From Candidatus Methylomirabilota bacterium (GTDB lineage Bacteria; Methylomirabilota; Methylomirabilia; Rokubacteriales; CSP1-6): a stretch of DNA of 64,000 nucleotides. Where the stretch lies: the NCBI GenBank assembly GCA_035281625.1, contig DATEDO010000105.1, forward strand, positions 102 through 64,101, written 5' to 3'. Positions 53,981 to 58,429 of the stretch are shown here, piece by piece (position 1 is the stretch's first letter; every line of letters begins with the position of its first letter). Below the pieces are notes generated by a model, which saw only the letters and a list, made by a program, of their open reading frames with translations, was not told the DNA's origin and did not search any database. The translations under genes were made by a program, and so were the position numbers.

Positions 53981-55300
53981 TCACTTCCCCATCAGGGCGT
54001 TCGGCAGCCAGGTGGCGAGCGGCGGCGCCACCGCCACCAGCCCCAGCATCACGAGCCCCAGGATCACGTACGGCGTGACCGCCCAGAACACCTGCCGCAT
54101 GGTGATCGAGCGCGGGGCGACGCTCTTCATGGTGAAGAGAAGCATGCCGAAGGGCGGCGTGAGGAGCCCGAGCTGCATGCACATGAGGTACAGCACGCCG
54201 AACCAGATGGGATCGAAGCGGTAGGTTTCGACCAGCGGCATGAAGAACGGCAACGTGATGAGCATCATGCTCACCTGGTCGACGAAGCAGCCGAGGACGA
54301 GCAGGATCAGCATCATCACCGTCATGACCATGAAGGGGCTGAAGTTGGCCTCCTGCACCGCCGCCACCAGCCCATTGGTGGCGCCCGAGAAGGTGAGGAT
54401 CTGCGAGAAGGTGGTCGCCCCCACGATGATGAACAGGATGACGCCGGAGATCGCCGCCGTCCCCATCAGCGCCTTCATGAGCCCGTTCCAGGTGAGGGCG
54501 CGGTAACCCGCCGCCATCACCACCGTCGCCACCGCGCCGACCGCGGCGGACTCGGTCGGCGTCGCCCAGCCCGCCGCCATCGCAAGCACGACGACCACGA
54601 AGATCACCACCAGGGGGAAGACGTACACGACGAGCGGCCGCCAGCGGGCCCAGCCGCGCACGGGGTCGTGCTCGAACGGCGGGGCCAGGCCCGGGTTCAT
54701 CGCGGTGCGCACCACGATGTAGCCCACGAACGACGCGGCGAGGAGCGCGCCGGGGACGATCCCGGCGAGGAGAAGACGCGAGATCGAGATGTTGGCGAGG
54801 CTGCCCAGCAGCACGGTGAGCGCCGAGGGCGGGATCAGCATGTCCACGCCGCCGATGGCGATGATGGGGCCCATCGCCATGGCGGGCTGATAACCCCGGC
54901 GCAGCATCTCGGGGAGCATGAGGCTGCCGAGCAGCGCGGTGGTTGCGATGGTGGAGCCGGAGATGGCCGAGAACACCGTGCCCGCGACCACCGCCACCAC
55001 CGACAGCCGGCCAGGCACGCGCGCGATGAGACGGTCGATGGCGTCGATGGCCTTCATGGCCACGCCGGTATGGAACAGCACTTCCCCCATCAGCACGAAG
55101 AACGGGATCGGCGTGAGCGAGAAGCTCGCGATCGACGCCACGCCGTTGCGGATCATCTGCACCAGCCCGGCGTCCTTGCCGAGCCACACCCAGGCGCCCA
55201 CCACGTTGATGCCGAGGAACGCGAAGGCGGCGGGCAGGGCCGCGGCGAGCAGCACCGAAAGAATGCCGAACAGCACGGTCGCGGCCAACCACCAGACCAT
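53981..55300 (-). CDS. dctM: TRAP transporter large permease
   Basis: 439 aa, polytopic. Start trimmed to ATG 55300. Confidence 0.9.
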   Translation of the reverse strand: MVWWLAATVLFGILSVLLAAALPAAFAFLGINVVGAWVWLGKDAGLVQMIRNGVASIASFSLTPIPFFVLMGEVLFHTGVAMKAIDAIDRLIARVPGRLSVVAVVAGTVFSAISGSTIATTALLGSLMLPEMLRRGYQPAMAMGPIIAIGGVDMLIPPSALTVLLGSLANISISRLLLAGIVPGALLAASFVGYIVVRTAMNPGLAPPFEHDPVRGWARWRPLVVYVFPLVVIFVVVVLAMAAGWATPTESAAVGAVATVVMAAGYRALTWNGLMKALMGTAAISGVILFIIVGATTFSQILTFSGATNGLVAAVQEANFSPFMVMTVMMLILLVLGCFVDQVSMMLITLPFFMPLVETYRFDPIWFGVLYLMCMQLGLLTPPFGMLLFTMKSVAPRSITMRQVFWAVTPYVILGLVMLGLVAVAPPLATWLPNALMGK

Positions 55301-55314
55301 GGGCGGGCGCGGCC

Positions 55315-55809
55315 CTAGGCGTGCGGGCCGCGGCCGGCGAGCGCGCCGCCGCGCACCAAGCGGCGCACGAACTCGACGGCGAGGAAGGCGAAGCACAGGG
55401 GGACGGGCGCGTAGAGCCACCACTCGGGGAAGACCACCGACTTGATCACCATCGAGCTCTGCTGGGCCGAGCTGACCACCGCCCGCCACCCGTAGATCAC
55501 GAAGATCACGGACACCGCCAGCCCCACCCCGTCCGAGAGGCGCTCGAGCGCGCGGGCCGCCTTCACGGGGATGGCGGTGAGGAGCACGTCGAGCCGCACG
55601 TGCTCGTTGCGATAGAGCAGCCAGGGGGCTACGAGGAAGGTGGCGAGGGGCAGCCCGTACTCCGACACTTCGAGGATCCAGGGCAGCGTGCCGACGCCGA
55701 GATTGCGCGCGACGACGTCGCCGGTCACGAGGAGGGCGAGCAGACCGAGCAGCAGCGCGGCCACCACCGCGCCCGCGCGGAGCAGCCGTCCGTAGGCGCG
55801 CTCGAGCAT
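55315..55809 (-). CDS. dctQ: TRAP transporter small permease
   Basis: 164 aa with 4 TM helices, located between the DctP and DctM genes. Confidence 0.88.
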   Translation of the reverse strand: MLERAYGRLLRAGAVVAALLLGLLALLVTGDVVARNLGVGTLPWILEVSEYGLPLATFLVAPWLLYRNEHVRLDVLLTAIPVKAARALERLSDGVGLAVSVIFVIYGWRAVVSSAQQSSMVIKSVVFPEWWLYAPVPLCFAFLAVEFVRRLVRGGALAGRGPHA

Positions 55810-55816
55810 CCGCGCG

Positions 55817-56788
55817 CTATTTCTTCGAGAAGAGCTCGCGCATCTTGGGGCCGTGCTCGGGGCTGACCTTGAGGACGCCCGCCCAGCCCGCCTCGTACGC
55901 CTTGTCGAGATACTGCTGGGCGGCGGCGCCGTCGAACCGGATGACCTCGATCCCGGCCTGCTGCTGCCGCTTCGTCTCCTCCACCGTGTAGGTCTTCCAG
56001 AAGTCGTTCTGCGCTTCCAGCGCCCGGGTCTGCTTGGTCAGGTAGTCCCGCTGCGCCGGGGAGAGCTTCTTCCAGGTGTCGAGGTTCACCACCAGCGACA
56101 CCTCGGCGTCGTAGAAGCCGGGATCCACGCGGTACTTGGTCCTCTCGTGCCAGTTGAGGTCGAAGATGCCGCCGATGGGCCAGCCGTAGCCGTCCACCAC
56201 GCCGCGCTCGAGGGCGGTGTACACCTCGGCGGGCGCGGTCTGCATCACGGTGGCGCCCAGCGCGGTGAAGAAGTCGCGGTAGACCGGCGTGACACGGATC
56301 TTGAGCCCGGTGAGGTCGGGCCGGTCGATCTTCTTGTTCAGGTACACGTGGAAGGTCTGGTGCTCGACGACGCGGGCCAAATATTGCATGTTGCCCTTCT
56401 GATTCCACACCCGGTTGATGTAGTCGAACGCGCCGTTGGTGCGCTGCTCGGCCACCGGCATCCGGGTGAGCTTCAGCGCGTCGGACTCGGGGAAGACGTT
56501 GGTGTAGAACGCCCCCGTGGACATGGCCATGTCCACCACGCCGGTGCGCACGGCGTTCCCGACCTCGAAGGTGGGCACCGCCTTGGGCCCGCCGATGAAG
56601 TTCAGGCGCAGCACGCCTTTGCCCTCCTCGTTGACCTTGGCGATCCAGGTCTCCAGCCGCTTCACGTAGAGAGAGCTCTCGGGAAACGCGCTCACCACCC
56701 TGAGGGTGGTCTCCTGCGCGCCCGCGGCGAGCGGCAGGGCGAGCAGAACCGCGACGGCGGTGGCGACGATGCGGGCGCGTGTGGTCAC
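55817..56788 (-). CDS. dctP: TRAP transporter substrate-binding protein
   Basis: Signal peptide followed by a DctP-type fold pattern. GTG start with GAGGAGG RBS. Confidence 0.88.
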
Positions 56789-56810
56789 GGGCTCCTCCTC
56801 GAAGGGACGT

Positions 56811-57905
56811 TCAGGACACGAGATCGCGCACGCGCGCGAGGGGCGTGCCGTCCCTTCTGGTGATGGGGCGTCTTGCCGGGCGCGTCTGGTCGCCGAAGGT
56901 CGGCTGCCAGCAGGAGTGCTTGCCAGCGCCCCCGGCCACGATGATCAGGATGTCCTCGGCCTTCTTCACGATGGGGACCATGGTGTCGTCGGCGCCGGCG
57001 ATCTTGCGGCGCTCCACCAGGTACTGGCGATACTCGTCGCCGAGCCGGCGGAGCGGGTAGCGCGCGTGCTCGAAGAGGAACTCCTTCACCTGCTGCTTGC
57101 GGTAGCCGTCGCGCGCGATGGTGGCGGCGTGCTCGGGCCCCAGCGTGAGGAGCGGGGTGCCGGCGCCGAGCAGGTTGTTGCTGCCCGCCTGACCCATGGC
57201 ACCGGCGATGACCTTGAGGACGCCCAGGCCGGTGTAGGAGTAGTGGTCCTGGATGTTGTGCGGCCCCTCGCAGCCGTTCACGGTGACGGTGCTCGTCTCC
57301 ATGGGAAAGCCCGCCTCCACGTGGAGCGGCTCCCACGGATTGGCTTCCTCGTTCTCCGCCACGCAGTAGGCGATCTTGGCCGGGCTGCCCTGGGTGGAGC
57401 GGTCGCCGGTGCCCGGCAGCCCGCCGCCCACGTTCATGAGGATCAGTCGCACCGCGCGGCCGATGGTGACGTTGGCCCGGAATCCCTGGCCGAACGCGTT
57501 GTACCCACTGTTGATGCCGAGCTCGCGGCCGATGGGGCCGTTCACGATGAGGATGGGGGCGACCGGATGGGTGGTGGCCTGGATGGAGTCGAGGTTGAAC
57601 GCCGGATCGGCGAGGGCCTCGATGGCCGCGACGATGACGGGAAAGTATTCGGGCTGGCAACCCGCCATCACGGTGTTGATGGCCAGCCGCTCGATCGTCG
57701 CCTCGCCTTGCCGCGGCGGCAGCACCGCCACCACCTCGCGGGGCGAACGGTCCGTGTAGCGCAGCACCGCCGCCACCGCATCCTCGGTGGGCGGCACGAT
57801 GGGCAGGCCGTCCGTCCACCCCCGCTCCTGGTAGAGCTGGTTGATGGCGGCGTAGGACTCCTCCATCTTGAACGTCTTCGCGGCCGGTCCGACGGCGACG
57901 CTCAT
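56811..57905 (-). CDS. Conserved hypothetical protein (364 aa), partner of the U-G-S-C protein
   Basis: ATGA overlap with the upstream gene. Contains [14 protein letters not shown]...[13 protein letters not shown]...[17 protein letters not shown]. No characterised family recognised. Confidence 0.7.
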
Positions 57906-58429
57906 CGCGTCAGCGCTTTCACGACCACGTCGACGACGAGATCGGCCTTCTTGATGGCCTCGTCCTCCGGAATGCCGCCCAGGGGATGGGGAACGAGCGC
58001 GAGCGGCAGGTCAGCCATGCCGCGATTCTTCGACTCGAGCGTGGCGAGCTGCTCGAACTCGTTGGTCCCGAGGACGACGGACGGGACGCCCTTCTGCTCC
58101 AGCACGATGGCGCCGTGGATACTCCACGACGTGCACGACCCTCAGTCGGCGCTGCCGACCAGGGCGACGTCGCACGTCGTGAGCGCCTCCAGGATCGTGG
58201 GCGACGGCGCCCCCGCGATACCCTTCTCGCGCTTCACGACCTCGCCCGCTCCGTAGCGCTCCTGCAGCCGCCGCGCCACCGCGAGCATGAGCGTCCCCGC
58301 ATTGGCCTTGCTGTTGTCGAGGATGGCGATCCGCTTCCCCGCCAGGCTGTCCACCCGCTTGGCGAGCCCCGCCGCCAGGATCTTCGGCTCGGCGGTGGGG
58401 TCGTACAGGGTCACGTCCTTGCCGCTCAT
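57902..58429 (-). CDS. U-G-S-C motif protein with in-frame TGA: selenoprotein candidate (175 codons)
   Basis: Track ORFs 58142..58429 and 57902..58105 share a frame and are split only by TGA 58142-58144. Read-through gives VALVGSAD-U-GSCTSWSIHGAIVLEQKGVPSVV...LVPHPLGG. GGGAGGAG RBS precedes ATG 58429. Confidence 0.7.
58111..58131 (-). other. Putative bacterial SECIS-like hairpin downstream of UGA 58142-58144
   Basis: The RNA CGUCGUGGA-GUA-UCCACGGCG forms a 9-bp stem including one G.U pair. The stem starts 10 nt after the UGA, and the GU-containing loop is about 20 nt downstream. Confidence 0.5.

Follow-up and report, generated by a model that had tools for sequence, protein, structure and literature searches.

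Organization of the Locus

The window, the whole 64,000-nucleotide stretch of DNA that was analyzed, carries a run of five genes on the minus strand, encoding a UGSC-family selenoprotein, a 364-aa protein, DctP, DctQ, and DctM, with spacings of 0 to 22 nt. The features of this locus, together with a neighboring gene, are as follows.

58621..59160, minus strand (the strand of the five genes): 3-hydroxyanthranilate 3,4-dioxygenase gene (TIGR03037, 212 bits against a cut-off of 146)
57902..58429, minus strand: UGSC-family selenoprotein gene, 175 codons with Sec at codon 96 (translation and PF24696 match)
58142..58144, minus strand: UGA selenocysteine codon (aligned codon in related loci)
58111..58131, minus strand: SECIS-like hairpin with a 9-bp stem and a G-U-A loop (fold and covariation)
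56811..57905, minus strand: 364-aa partner of an unannotated family (key residues D32, C83, R150, and E184; C181 in 86%)
55817..56788, minus strand: TRAP solute-binding protein DctP (PF03480, 3e-30)
55315..55809, minus strand: TRAP small permease DctQ (PF04290, 2e-24)
53981..55300, minus strand: TRAP large permease DctM, 439 aa (TIGR00786, 293 bits against a cut-off of 268, and PF06808)

The UGSC gene and the 364-aa ORF share a 4-nt ATGA overlap, which is followed by gaps of 22 nt to DctP, 7 nt between DctP and DctQ, and 14 nt between DctQ and DctM, so that the coordinates agree with the original prediction of five co-directional genes separated by at most 22 nt. The P, Q, and M component genes are contiguous, 7–14 nt apart, and each product matches its own Pfam family (PF03480, PF04290, and PF06808, respectively). 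The start codon of DctM was checked, and its orthologues are likewise 439 aa long.

The UGSC Protein and Its Selenocysteine Codon

The UGSC ORF contains a single in-frame TGA at codon 96, giving ...GSAD-U-GSCTSW..., with the motif D-U-G-S-C-T at codons 95–100 and its extended form D-U-G-S-C-T-S-W. The protein matches PF24696 at 155.4 bits (cut-off 25, E 2e-45) over profile positions 2–171 of 172, and it scores 122.2 bits with NF041046 when U is replaced by C, just below the equivalog cut-off of 125. Homology spans the TGA in 75 related loci. Of the 80 UGSC matches in related loci, 75 have TGA at the codon aligned to Sec96 and five have TGT or TGC, these five being three Methanobacteriaceae loci, Natrialba, and one Sphingomonas MAG. 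A hairpin begins 11 nt 3′ of the UGA and is shared at the same distance by about 70 Sec-form loci, while it is absent in four of the five Cys-form loci, with Natrialba retaining a partial stem. Across 70 sequences, 91.7% of the cells in the hairpin are paired and compensatory changes occur in 24 cells; none of 500 shuffles equaled the observed value, and slid controls were at most 54% paired. Because this downstream SECIS-like hairpin covaries across 70 loci, the in-frame UGA is a genuine Sec codon, and the U-G-S-C protein, with 75 TGA against five Cys codons at this position, is a genuine selenoprotein as had been predicted.

Public gene calls split the UGSC gene into ORFs of 95 aa and 67–72 aa, which is how the region would look if the TGA were a true stop and two small unrelated ORFs lay by chance beside an independent 364-aa ORF. 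This explanation is effectively refuted, since both halves match a single Pfam family, homology spans the TGA in the 75 loci, Cys replaces the stop in five loci, full-length Cys-form proteins and fusions exist, the hairpin covaries, and adjacency to the 364-aa ORF holds in approximately 96% of loci in both directions (see below).

UGSC is already a named family (Pfam PF24696, NCBIfam NF041046) and has been reported since 2007–2008 as an abundant selenoprotein of unknown function (Zhang & Gladyshev, PMC1976440, PMC2398784), its function being listed as unknown in the 2026 literature as well (PMC13188914). In aerobic surface waters, it is among the most abundant selenoproteins (PMC2398784). The selenoprotein itself is therefore no discovery; the new element here is the 364-aa family.

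In a model of a natural UGSC–partner fusion (AF2, pTM 0.89), the UGSC domain is built of five beta-alpha units, with U/CxxC placed after strand 3, where a helix begins. Its Foldseek matches are flavodoxin, lumazine synthase, and azoreductase, and a thioredoxin-fold redoxin was rejected as its identity on the basis of these units and non-Trx matches. Among 23 UGSC members, no Pfam family other than PF24696 was found at E ≤ 0.001, and the weaker extra matches, at E 0.003–0.24, each concern a single member. Membership of GrdB/PrdB or GrdA was rejected, as PF24696 is the only match of the 23 members at that threshold.

The 364-aa Partner Family

Neither Pfam nor NCBIfam gave a match to the 364-aa protein (for Pfam, none at E ≤ 1 across 66 family members), and no sequence relative was found in the PDB, in line with the earlier remark that no characterized enzyme family was recognized for it. 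Its own family comprises 5,813 clusters at 50% identity. D32, R150, and E184 are conserved in all of the 152 loci examined and Cys83 in 151, whereas Cys181 is absent in 14% of them. Among 66 diverse homologues, and likewise in the 152 loci, the blocks D32-G-L-P..P-P-T40, M80-A-G-C83, and T112..G123-P124 show either no variation or conservation of 90% and above, which confirms what had been read as conserved-looking sequence. In the AF2 model (pLDDT 95.6), Cys83 lies at a helix N-terminus between two helices of a compact, confident fold.

A Foldseek search of this model against the PDB gave no convincing fold match, the best TM values being 0.24–0.28. Its highest-ranking matches were fumarate hydratases of class I, at E 1e-3 to 1e-1 with a probability of at most 0.6, and cyclic amide hydrolases of the Toblerone fold; TM was 0.16–0.28 and rmsd 13–18 Å for these, values too poor for a credible shared fold. 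The three-Cys cluster motif of Fe-S hydro-lyases is also absent, Cys83 alone being near-invariant and Cys181 present in 86% of loci. An identity as a pyruvoyl proprotein of the PrdA/GrdE type was likewise rejected, with no Pfam match at E ≤ 1.

The invariant G82-C83 dipeptide is a possible processing site, and this bears on a Stickland-type reductive cleavage like that of D-proline or glycine reductase. Self-cleavage between Gly82 and Cys83 would here give a pyruvoyl group, as in PrdA and GrdE from Cys; the bound substrate would be attacked by the small subunit's Sec, and the selenoether so formed would be resolved by Cys99. Such an enzyme could plausibly depend on a TrxR-type or dithiol reductant, and the UxxC motif type is that of PrdB (table in PMC2398784). 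We nevertheless regard this mechanism as very improbable, because none of the 23 UGSC members matches the GRDB/PrdB Pfam family, the partner lacks any Pfam match that would link it to PrdA/GrdE, the modeled helix N-terminus that carries Cys83 is the usual setting of a thiolate nucleophile and not of a loop that cleaves itself, and members of the family are frequent in aerobes and archaea that lack amino-acid fermentation.

Association of the Two Genes

Conservation of the two genes as neighbors, the check proposed with the original prediction, proved near-universal in both directions. When 80 genomic loci were chosen by the partner, UGSC adjoins on the same strand in 76 (75 by tblastn and one more by HMM), and two of the four remaining loci reach a contig end. 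When 80 metagenomic loci were chosen by UGSC, picked solely by a DCGSC motif, the partner adjoins in 77 and the other three contigs end early. Bacteria of many phyla (Methylomirabilota, Proteobacteria, Chloroflexota, and others) carry the pair, and so do archaea. Natural fusions place UGSC ahead of the partner, with Cys-form as well as Sec-form examples, or behind it; the partner also occurs in tandem copies and, in one case (P0196), fused to thioredoxin reductase (TrxR). Several paralogous pairs can be present per genome, even per locus. The pair is thus obligate and sometimes fused, and because adjacency or fusion is near-universal, UGSC and the 364-aa protein almost certainly form one two-subunit enzyme. 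In the fused relatives P0126, P0131, P0164, and P0253, the U/CxxC motif is lost and Cys83 is kept, so that the redox pair appears dispensable in part of the family.

Proposed Redox Role and Linkage to Thioredoxin Reductase

In seven of 160 loci, a TrxR-like gene directly abuts UGSC on the same strand, and these genes encode a CxxC; of the two tested against TIGR01292, the better scored 308 bits and the other 178 bits. The pair is therefore genetically linked to TrxR. A UxxC in this helix N-terminal position is characteristic of redox chemistry, and the redox role originally proposed for the pair is plausible in view of this motif, the near-invariant Cys83, the seven TrxR-abutting loci, and the partner–TrxR fusion. 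The TrxR linkage is seen in fewer than 5% of loci, and the remainder of the redox reading is motif logic.

The pair could also be a two-subunit enzyme without net redox chemistry (an isomerase, hydro-lyase, decarboxylase, or hydrolase, for example) whose substrates are carboxylic acids or CoA esters. In that case, Sec96/Cys99 and Cys83 would serve as covalent nucleophiles in addition-elimination, or would supply all three ligands to an Fe-S or metal site at the subunit interface, like that of class I fumarate hydratase. This would suit the best, though weak, fold matches of the partner, the recurring non-redox acid/CoA enzymes among its neighbors, the fusions that retain the large-domain motifs without U/CxxC, and the fact that Cys83 and UxxC supply exactly three ligands. 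We consider it unlikely: matches at TM 0.24–0.28 with an rmsd of 17 Å amount to no real fold match, the UxxC placement is of the redox type, and the abutting TrxR-like genes and the TrxR fusion speak against it. No case of Sec ligating an Fe-S cluster is known, which counts against the metal-site variant.

TRAP Transporter and Genomic Neighborhood

DctP is 73% identical over its full length to PDB 4MNC/4MNI (495 bits). The ligand of 4MNC is reportedly benzoylformate, an aromatic 2-oxo acid, from the work of Vetting et al. in 2015. On this similarity, the substrate may be an aromatic 2-oxo acid or a derivative. The TRAP genes are co-operonic with the pair in close orthologues (80–93% identity), but they are absent beside pairs at 69–78% identity in the same phylum, and none were found beside the pair in 80 diverse loci. 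Orthologues of the DctPQM system also occur without the UGSC pair, next to other enzymes; one adjoins genes of the indolepyruvate:ferredoxin oxidoreductase family and a DpgC-like gene, whose product would be an aryl-glyoxylate. Since the TRAP link is limited to close orthologues and the transporter also occurs without the pair, the proposal that the pair acts on a TRAP-imported acid is weak and lineage-specific. The 3-hydroxyanthranilate dioxygenase gene lies 191 nt upstream of the UGSC gene on the same strand; this neighbor is kept solely in a relative at 93% identity and replaced in orthologues at 80% identity, and is a matter of local synteny only.

Pairs often share their operon with genes of solute-binding proteins and of catabolic enzymes that depend on CoA, and the recurrent neighbors include CoA-transferase III, enoyl-CoA hydratase, MmgE/PrpD, Amidohydro_2/DUF6282, and MaoC-like proteins. 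No third gene common to all pair loci was found. The pair of a Methanobacterium MAG sits among housekeeping genes, beside LysRS and ThiC, and so fits poorly with a pathway-specific catabolic role; some Methylomirabilota pairs lie beside signaling or secretion genes. That many pairs are solitary in unrelated contexts, together with the lack of a universal third gene, raises the alternative of a general protective or repair system instead of a catabolic enzyme. UGSC would then be the dedicated redoxin of, for instance, a peroxidase of the thiol/selenol type or a reductase of sulfoxides or disulfides. The conserved Cys, Arg, Glu, and Thr of the partner are similar to the residues with which Ohr, peroxiredoxins, and MsrA carry out catalysis, and Cys83/Arg150/Glu184 would be the corresponding set; the abundance of UGSC in aerobic surface waters (PMC2398784) would also suit such a role. 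Multiple paralogous pairs per genome or locus and the frequent operons with solute-binding and CoA-dependent catabolic genes are, however, typical of substrate-diversified metabolic enzymes, and no similarity to Prx, Ohr, or Msr was found by sequence or fold. A protective system is accordingly improbable, slightly more so than the non-redox enzyme.

Proposed Mechanism

The best reading, which we hold with as much doubt as conviction, is an oxidoreductase of two subunits that depends on selenol/thiol chemistry and receives its electrons from a TrxR-type flavoprotein. The subunit roles, redox chemistry, and electron path that follow are what we infer, and the substrate assignment is speculative. 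The SECIS hairpin, 11 nt past the UGA, directs Sec insertion, and since the two genes overlap at ATGA, their translation is probably coupled. UGSC and the 364-aa protein would be the two subunits of a single enzyme, co-transcribed in this lineage with the DctPQM TRAP importer. The 364-aa protein would bind the substrate and carry out catalysis with an active site of Asp32, Arg150, Glu184, and Cys83 at the helix N-terminus, and UGSC would be a small five-strand alpha/beta (flavodoxin-like) redox-carrier subunit, whose Sec96-x-x-Cys99 pair, likewise placed where a helix begins, would alternate between a selenol/thiol form and a selenosulfide. Electrons would pass from NAD(P)H through the TrxR-type flavoprotein and Sec96/Cys99 to Cys83 or a Cys83-bound intermediate and then to the substrate, perhaps the imported aromatic 2-oxo acid or its derivative. 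The flavoprotein would be a dedicated one in some genomes and is presumably the housekeeping one here. A physical complex and electron transfer from TrxR via UGSC to the large subunit are proposed on the basis of adjacency, fusions, and TrxR neighbors.

A broader suggestion, which we offer tentatively and with less confidence than the two-subunit oxidoreductase, is that the 364-aa family is the catalytic subunit of an undescribed Sec/Cys-dependent enzyme class, with a fold new to the PDB. Its built-in reductant would be a Sec-x-x-Cys subunit that is dedicated to it and lacks the thioredoxin fold, and its paralogues would carry out reductive conversions of various organic acids imported by archaea and by bacteria of soil, freshwater, and the sea. 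If true, this suggestion would account for the abundance of UGSC among selenoproteins in environmental metagenomes. The obligate partner offers a concrete route to the role of this abundant environmental selenoprotein.

Comparison with Known Systems

The small gene belongs to the UGSC family, with which it shares the length, the D-U-G-S-C-T-S-W motif, the Sec/Cys alternation across taxa, and the SECIS hairpin. It differs from the literature description in that the model predicts a five-strand beta-alpha repeat of the flavodoxin/Rossmann type. No description of an obligate partner or of a TrxR linkage was found in the UGSC literature examined; Zhang & Gladyshev (2008) name only a 'UGSC/Unknown_1 fusion'. 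The transporter resembles that of 4MNC/4MNI, with DctP 73% identical to it and DctQ and DctM canonical, whereas orthologous operons of that type lie beside other enzymes and lack the UGSC pair. The alpha domain of class I fumarate hydratase and the Toblerone-fold hydrolases are the top Foldseek matches of the partner model, and they act on small carboxylic acids.

The thioredoxin system, in which TrxR reduces a redoxin that serves MsrA, ArsC, PAPS reductase, or peroxiredoxin, is similar in its CxxC/UxxC carrier with a reactive residue at a helix N-terminus, in the catalytic Cys of the target, and in the TrxR-type flavoprotein adjacent or fused in some genomes. In contrast, the UGSC carrier lacks the thioredoxin fold and, instead of serving as a general redoxin, is devoted to one target that it always adjoins or is fused to, and the 364-aa target has no similarity to known Trx-dependent reductases. 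GrdA/GrdB/GrdE and PrdA/PrdB are likewise multi-subunit selenoenzymes in which a UxxC/CxxU selenoprotein subunit is joined by one that binds the substrate; they act on small acids, with a dithiol or the Trx system as reductant. They have no sequence relationship to the UGSC pair, and they belong to amino-acid-fermenting anaerobes, whereas the UGSC pair is found in aerobes and archaea.

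Operon organization in the window

The selenoprotein candidate (UGSC), its 364-aa partner and a TRAP transporter are encoded in a five-gene region of the minus strand (53981..58429), which is listed here with the dioxygenase gene upstream of it.

Genes of the UGSC operon and the upstream dioxygenase gene
57902..58429, minus strand: UGSC gene with an in-frame TGA; PF24696 and NF041046 matches
56811..57905, minus strand: 364-aa partner ORF, its ATG overlapping the UGSC stop (ATGA); no family match
55817..56788, minus strand: DctP, after a 22-nt gap; family match
55315..55809, minus strand: DctQ, after a 7-nt gap; family match
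53981..55300, minus strand: DctM (439 aa), after a 14-nt gap; family match, start codon checked
58621..59160: 3-hydroxyanthranilate 3,4-dioxygenase gene, 191 nt upstream of the UGSC gene

The original prediction had described five co-directional genes with gaps of 22 nt or less and a dioxygenase gene about 190 nt upstream, and the description is accurate because the gene layout and the family matches, including the partner's lack of any, agree with it. A minus-strand block 3′ of DctM (50244..53848) is syntenic in relatives at 80–90% identity and is conserved along with the operon in its orthologues at 80–93% identity. It encodes a small Gly-zipper_YMGG lipoprotein (53566..53781), a GFO/IDH/MocA oxidoreductase (51999..53180) and a PolX/PHP DNA polymerase (50244..51986), and it has one further small ORF. 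Just upstream of the dioxygenase gene lies a minus-strand gene (59200..60219) for an ABC_sub_bind (PF04392) binding protein with a weak match to TrpX-like tryptophan ABC binding proteins (106 bits against a cut-off of 390), which may point to a small gene cluster related to tryptophan/kynurenine and distinct from the UGSC operon. Very long antisense ORFs (467–956 aa) on the plus strand at 50379..53249, 53915..55318 and 58447..60291 are artefacts of the ~70% G+C content, which mislead simple longest-ORF gene calling. The 64-kb window contains no tRNA-Sec gene.

Selenocysteine codon and SECIS hairpin

The UGSC ORF is interrupted by a single in-frame TGA (58142..58144), around which the protein reads ...LVGSAD-U-GSCTSWSIHG.... 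When the read-through protein was compared with 80 related genome loci by tblastn, the alignments crossed the stop without interruption, and the aligned codon was TGA in 75 matches and TGT or TGC in five, namely three Methanobacteriaceae loci, Natrialba and a Sphingomonas MAG. In the window, a hairpin (58111..58131) with a 9-bp stem and G-U in its loop starts 11 nt 3′ of the UGA; it occurs at the identical position in ~70 Sec-form loci and is gone from four of the five Cys-form loci, with Natrialba retaining a partial stem. A 70-sequence alignment of the stem showed 91.7% of the cells to be paired, with double (compensatory) changes in 24 cells; for example, a G-C to C-G swap is found in 15 sequences, where a Trp-to-Cys change is matched by a silent change of a Val codon. 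None of 500 shuffles reached the observed values, and slid registers paired at most 54%. Thus homology across the UGA, alternation with Cys and the covarying hairpin establish the U-G-S-C selenoprotein that had been put forward as a candidate, and the UGA of the window encodes selenocysteine.

A large partner family without annotation

No Pfam or NCBIfam match was obtained for the partner protein of the window, nor did any of 66 diverse members of its family match Pfam at E ≤ 1. Word-indexed searching brought up at least 7,927 relatives, all of them "hypothetical"; among the matches listed, none had a Pfam domain and the nearest named relatives were Rokubacteria/Methylomirabilota MAGs. Exhaustive HMMER searching of 50%-identity cluster representatives assigned 5,813 clusters to the family at E ≤ 1e-3, 1,559 of them with E ≤ 1e-30. 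This large "dark" family merits a Pfam entry of its own.

The family profile found nothing among PDB sequences. The AF2 model of the partner is highly confident (pLDDT 95.6, pTM 0.93), and Foldseek placed no PDB chain at E ≤ 1e-3 beside it. The best TM-scores (0.24–0.28) belonged to class I fumarate hydratases and Toblerone-fold amide hydrolases; these hits and the PurM-like ones all have TM < 0.3 and were counted as non-matches. On the basis of the profile and Foldseek searches, the predicted fold is treated as one without a solved relative. The view that the 364-aa protein belongs to no characterised enzyme family is upheld by all of these searches. Across 152 loci, Asp32, Arg150, Glu184 and Gly325 (window numbering) are invariant, whereas Cys83, located in a NAVMAGC motif at a helix N-terminus, is kept in 151 loci and Cys181 in 131.

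Pairing of UGSC with the partner

Conservation of the neighbourhood was examined in both directions. Genes were located by tblastn together with a clustering of every ORF and a GC3 filter; in these high-GC loci, greedy longest-ORF calling found only 50 of 80 partner genes. Among 80 genome loci chosen by the 364-aa family alone, UGSC lies beside the partner on the same strand in 75; most of these genes abut and six have one intervening gene, with UGSC on the 5′ side of its partner in ~55 loci and on the 3′ side in ~20. HMM searching adds one locus (L037), in which a divergent UGSC accompanies two tandem partner genes, and two of the remaining four end at a contig edge. The loci come from bacteria (Methylomirabilota, Binatia, Alpha-, Beta-, Gamma- and Deltaproteobacteria, Dehalococcoidia, Acidobacteriota, Actinomycetota, Bacillota and Poribacteria) and archaea (Natrialba, Methanobacterium and Nitrosocosmicus). 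Conversely, in 80 metagenome loci chosen only by the D-C-G-S-C-T motif, the partner adjoins the UGSC motif gene in the same orientation in 77, and the remaining three contigs are too short to show it. The expected conservation of the pair is therefore found at 76/80 loci in the forward and 77/80 in the reverse direction; UGSC and the partner are an obligate pair in both directions, and UGSC essentially never occurs alone.

Some loci (L012, L013, L019, L023, L029, L037, L074, L176 and L177) carry two pairs, or one UGSC with two tandem partner genes, within a few kb, and neighbouring double pairs are sometimes arranged head to head. Two or more partner domains can also lie in tandem within one polypeptide (P0137, P0201 and P0217). 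The clustered pairs and tandem domains may give hetero-oligomers of paralogous pairs. In a Dehalococcoidales locus (L010), a DUF6282 gene (1061..1921) is inserted between UGSC and the partner; its product looks amidohydrolase-like from its H-x-H start. A gap of ~950 nt at the same place in L013 and L016 suggests a similar insert.

Natural fusions and the modelled UGSC domain

Among the cluster representatives, fusions of ~530–570 aa contain a complete Cys-form UGSC domain (DCGSCTSW) followed by the 364-aa domain. Proteins of ~420–450 aa, for example from Robertmurraya sp. 2P01SA, begin just past the UGA and continue as the 364-aa domain; they are Sec-form fusions shortened by gene callers. In proteins of ~460 aa the order is reversed, the 364-aa domain preceding the N-terminal half of UGSC, which ends ...GSGD at the presumed UGA. 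The 364-aa domain also occurs in tandem duplications, and one protein (P0196) joins it with a thioredoxin-reductase-like module (GSGPAG...CAVC).

AF2 modelled one natural fusion with confidence for the entire chain (pTM 0.89). In this model, the UGSC domain is composed of five beta-alpha units, and the U/CxxC motif follows strand 3 and opens a helix. Reactive thiolates and selenolates typically occupy such a place.

Some fused relatives (P0126, P0131, P0164, P0253, P0248 and P0264) keep Cys83 and carry a degenerate UGSC domain, the motif of which is without Sec or Cys (for example GWSGV, EIGGS and DIGAA), and one family member (P0161) keeps CGSC and has no Cys83. A non-redox or metal-site enzyme, which the degenerate motifs favour and the thioredoxin-reductase fusion speaks against, appears unlikely.

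Genomic context and substrate

The five-gene operon is kept in orthologues at 80–93% identity. The dioxygenase gene is kept only in the 93%-identity relative, its place being taken in the 80%-identity orthologues by an ABC-2 exporter and an amidase; 3-hydroxyanthranilate dioxygenase was consequently rejected as a pathway partner. Pairs at 69–78% identity in other Methylomirabilota MAGs lack TRAP genes and are neighboured by a T2SS ATPase, histidine kinases, TauD or an amidohydrolase. A tblastn search found a TRAP system like that of the window in 0 of 80 diverse loci, and the TRAP system was likewise rejected as a conserved third component. The links that had been drawn from the pair to the TRAP transporter and the dioxygenase were thus overstated.

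Recurrent neighbours across loci include TctC/Bug binding proteins (18 loci), luciferase-like oxidoreductases (16), CoA-transferase III (12), enoyl-CoA hydratase (11), SDR (11), NHL/SGL (9), TrxR-like (7), MmgE/PrpD (6), Amidohydro_2 (5) and DUF6282 (5) proteins, labelled by Pfam except for SDR, which was labelled by reading the cluster representative. No third gene is universal across the loci; the gene immediately downstream is TctC in seven, NHL/SGL in five and other families once or twice. A PrpR-type sigma-54 activator gene precedes the operon of the Robertmurraya Sec fusion, and this operon includes ECH, PrpD-like, TRAP-TAXI, DUF6282 (L027 10944..11843), Ldh_2 and thioesterase genes. In Conexibacter, two Cys-form pairs are followed by acyl-CoA synthetase and thiolase/DUF35 genes, and in a Methanobacterium MAG the pair lies among housekeeping genes.

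DctP of the window shares 73% identity across the entire protein with the solved structure 4MNC/4MNI. We take 4MNC to be Polaromonas Bpro_4736 with benzoylformate, a structure reportedly from Vetting et al. in 2015. A DctPQM orthologue at 82% identity lies beside indolepyruvate:ferredoxin-oxidoreductase (IOR)-family genes and a DpgC-like gene, which is consistent with aromatic 2-oxo acids. At ~80% identity, DctP orthologues abound in Rokubacteria and Burkholderiales, with varied aromatic-acid genes as neighbours (IOR-like, DpgC-like, Rieske/LigXa and AKR). Since other DctPQM orthologues lie beside unrelated genes without the UGSC pair, a shared substrate of the pair and the TRAP system is a lineage-specific possibility only.

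Proposed mechanism

In 7 of 160 loci, the immediate co-directional neighbour of UGSC is a TrxR-like gene with a CxxC motif, and the two such genes that were tested scored 308 (best) and 178 bits against TIGR01292. These adjoining genes and the P0196 fusion suggest an electron path in which NAD(P)H would reduce a TrxR-type flavoprotein, from which electrons would pass to Sec96/Cys99 of UGSC and then to Cys83 and the substrate. UGSC may well be a dedicated selenol/thiol redox subunit serving a catalytic subunit built on Cys83, Arg150 and Glu184. We consider a protective reductase or peroxidase improbable. A Stickland-type pyruvoyl enzyme is very unlikely; a relationship of UGSC to GrdB/PrdB was looked for and none was found. 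Of the two-component selenium-dependent redox enzyme originally predicted, the conserved two-component selenium-dependent unit stands, and the redox chemistry is plausibly right.

Comparison with known selenoproteins

UGSC itself is an already known family, and no novelty can be claimed for the selenoprotein. Scoring U as C gave matches to Pfam PF24696 "UGSC family" with 155 bits (cut-off 25) and to NCBIfam NF041046 "UGSC family (seleno)protein", the NCBI label for family members, with 122 bits (cut-off 125). The "UGSC-containing protein" was described in 2007 by Zhang and Gladyshev as a selenoprotein of unknown function (PMC1976440), and in 2008 it was among the five most abundant selenoprotein families in Global Ocean Sampling data, especially in non-marine samples (PMC2398784). 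The 2008 study also mentions a "UGSC/Unknown_1 fusion" (PMC2398784), and reviews from 2022 and 2026 list UGSC as uncharacterised. In public gene calls, UGSC is systematically divided at the UGA, which gives ORFs of 95–97 and 67–72 aa, both tagged PF24696 (L081–L088 and L172–L175).

Through the pairing, this "orphan selenoprotein" becomes a target with two defined subunits. Cys forms exist naturally in cultured Conexibacter sp. and Natrialba asiatica, as do Sec-form fusions in a Robertmurraya isolate, and all of these are open to expression, assay and knock-out. A Trx-like fold was proposed for UGSC in 2008 (PMC2398784); in contrast, the structural neighbours of the modelled UGSC domain are flavodoxin, lumazine synthase and azoreductase (TM 0.4–0.6 on the target), and thioredoxin is not among them. 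Compared to the known UGSC family, what appears to be undescribed is the obligate pairing with a partner family that is very large, unannotated and without a solved relative, together with the TrxR connection.
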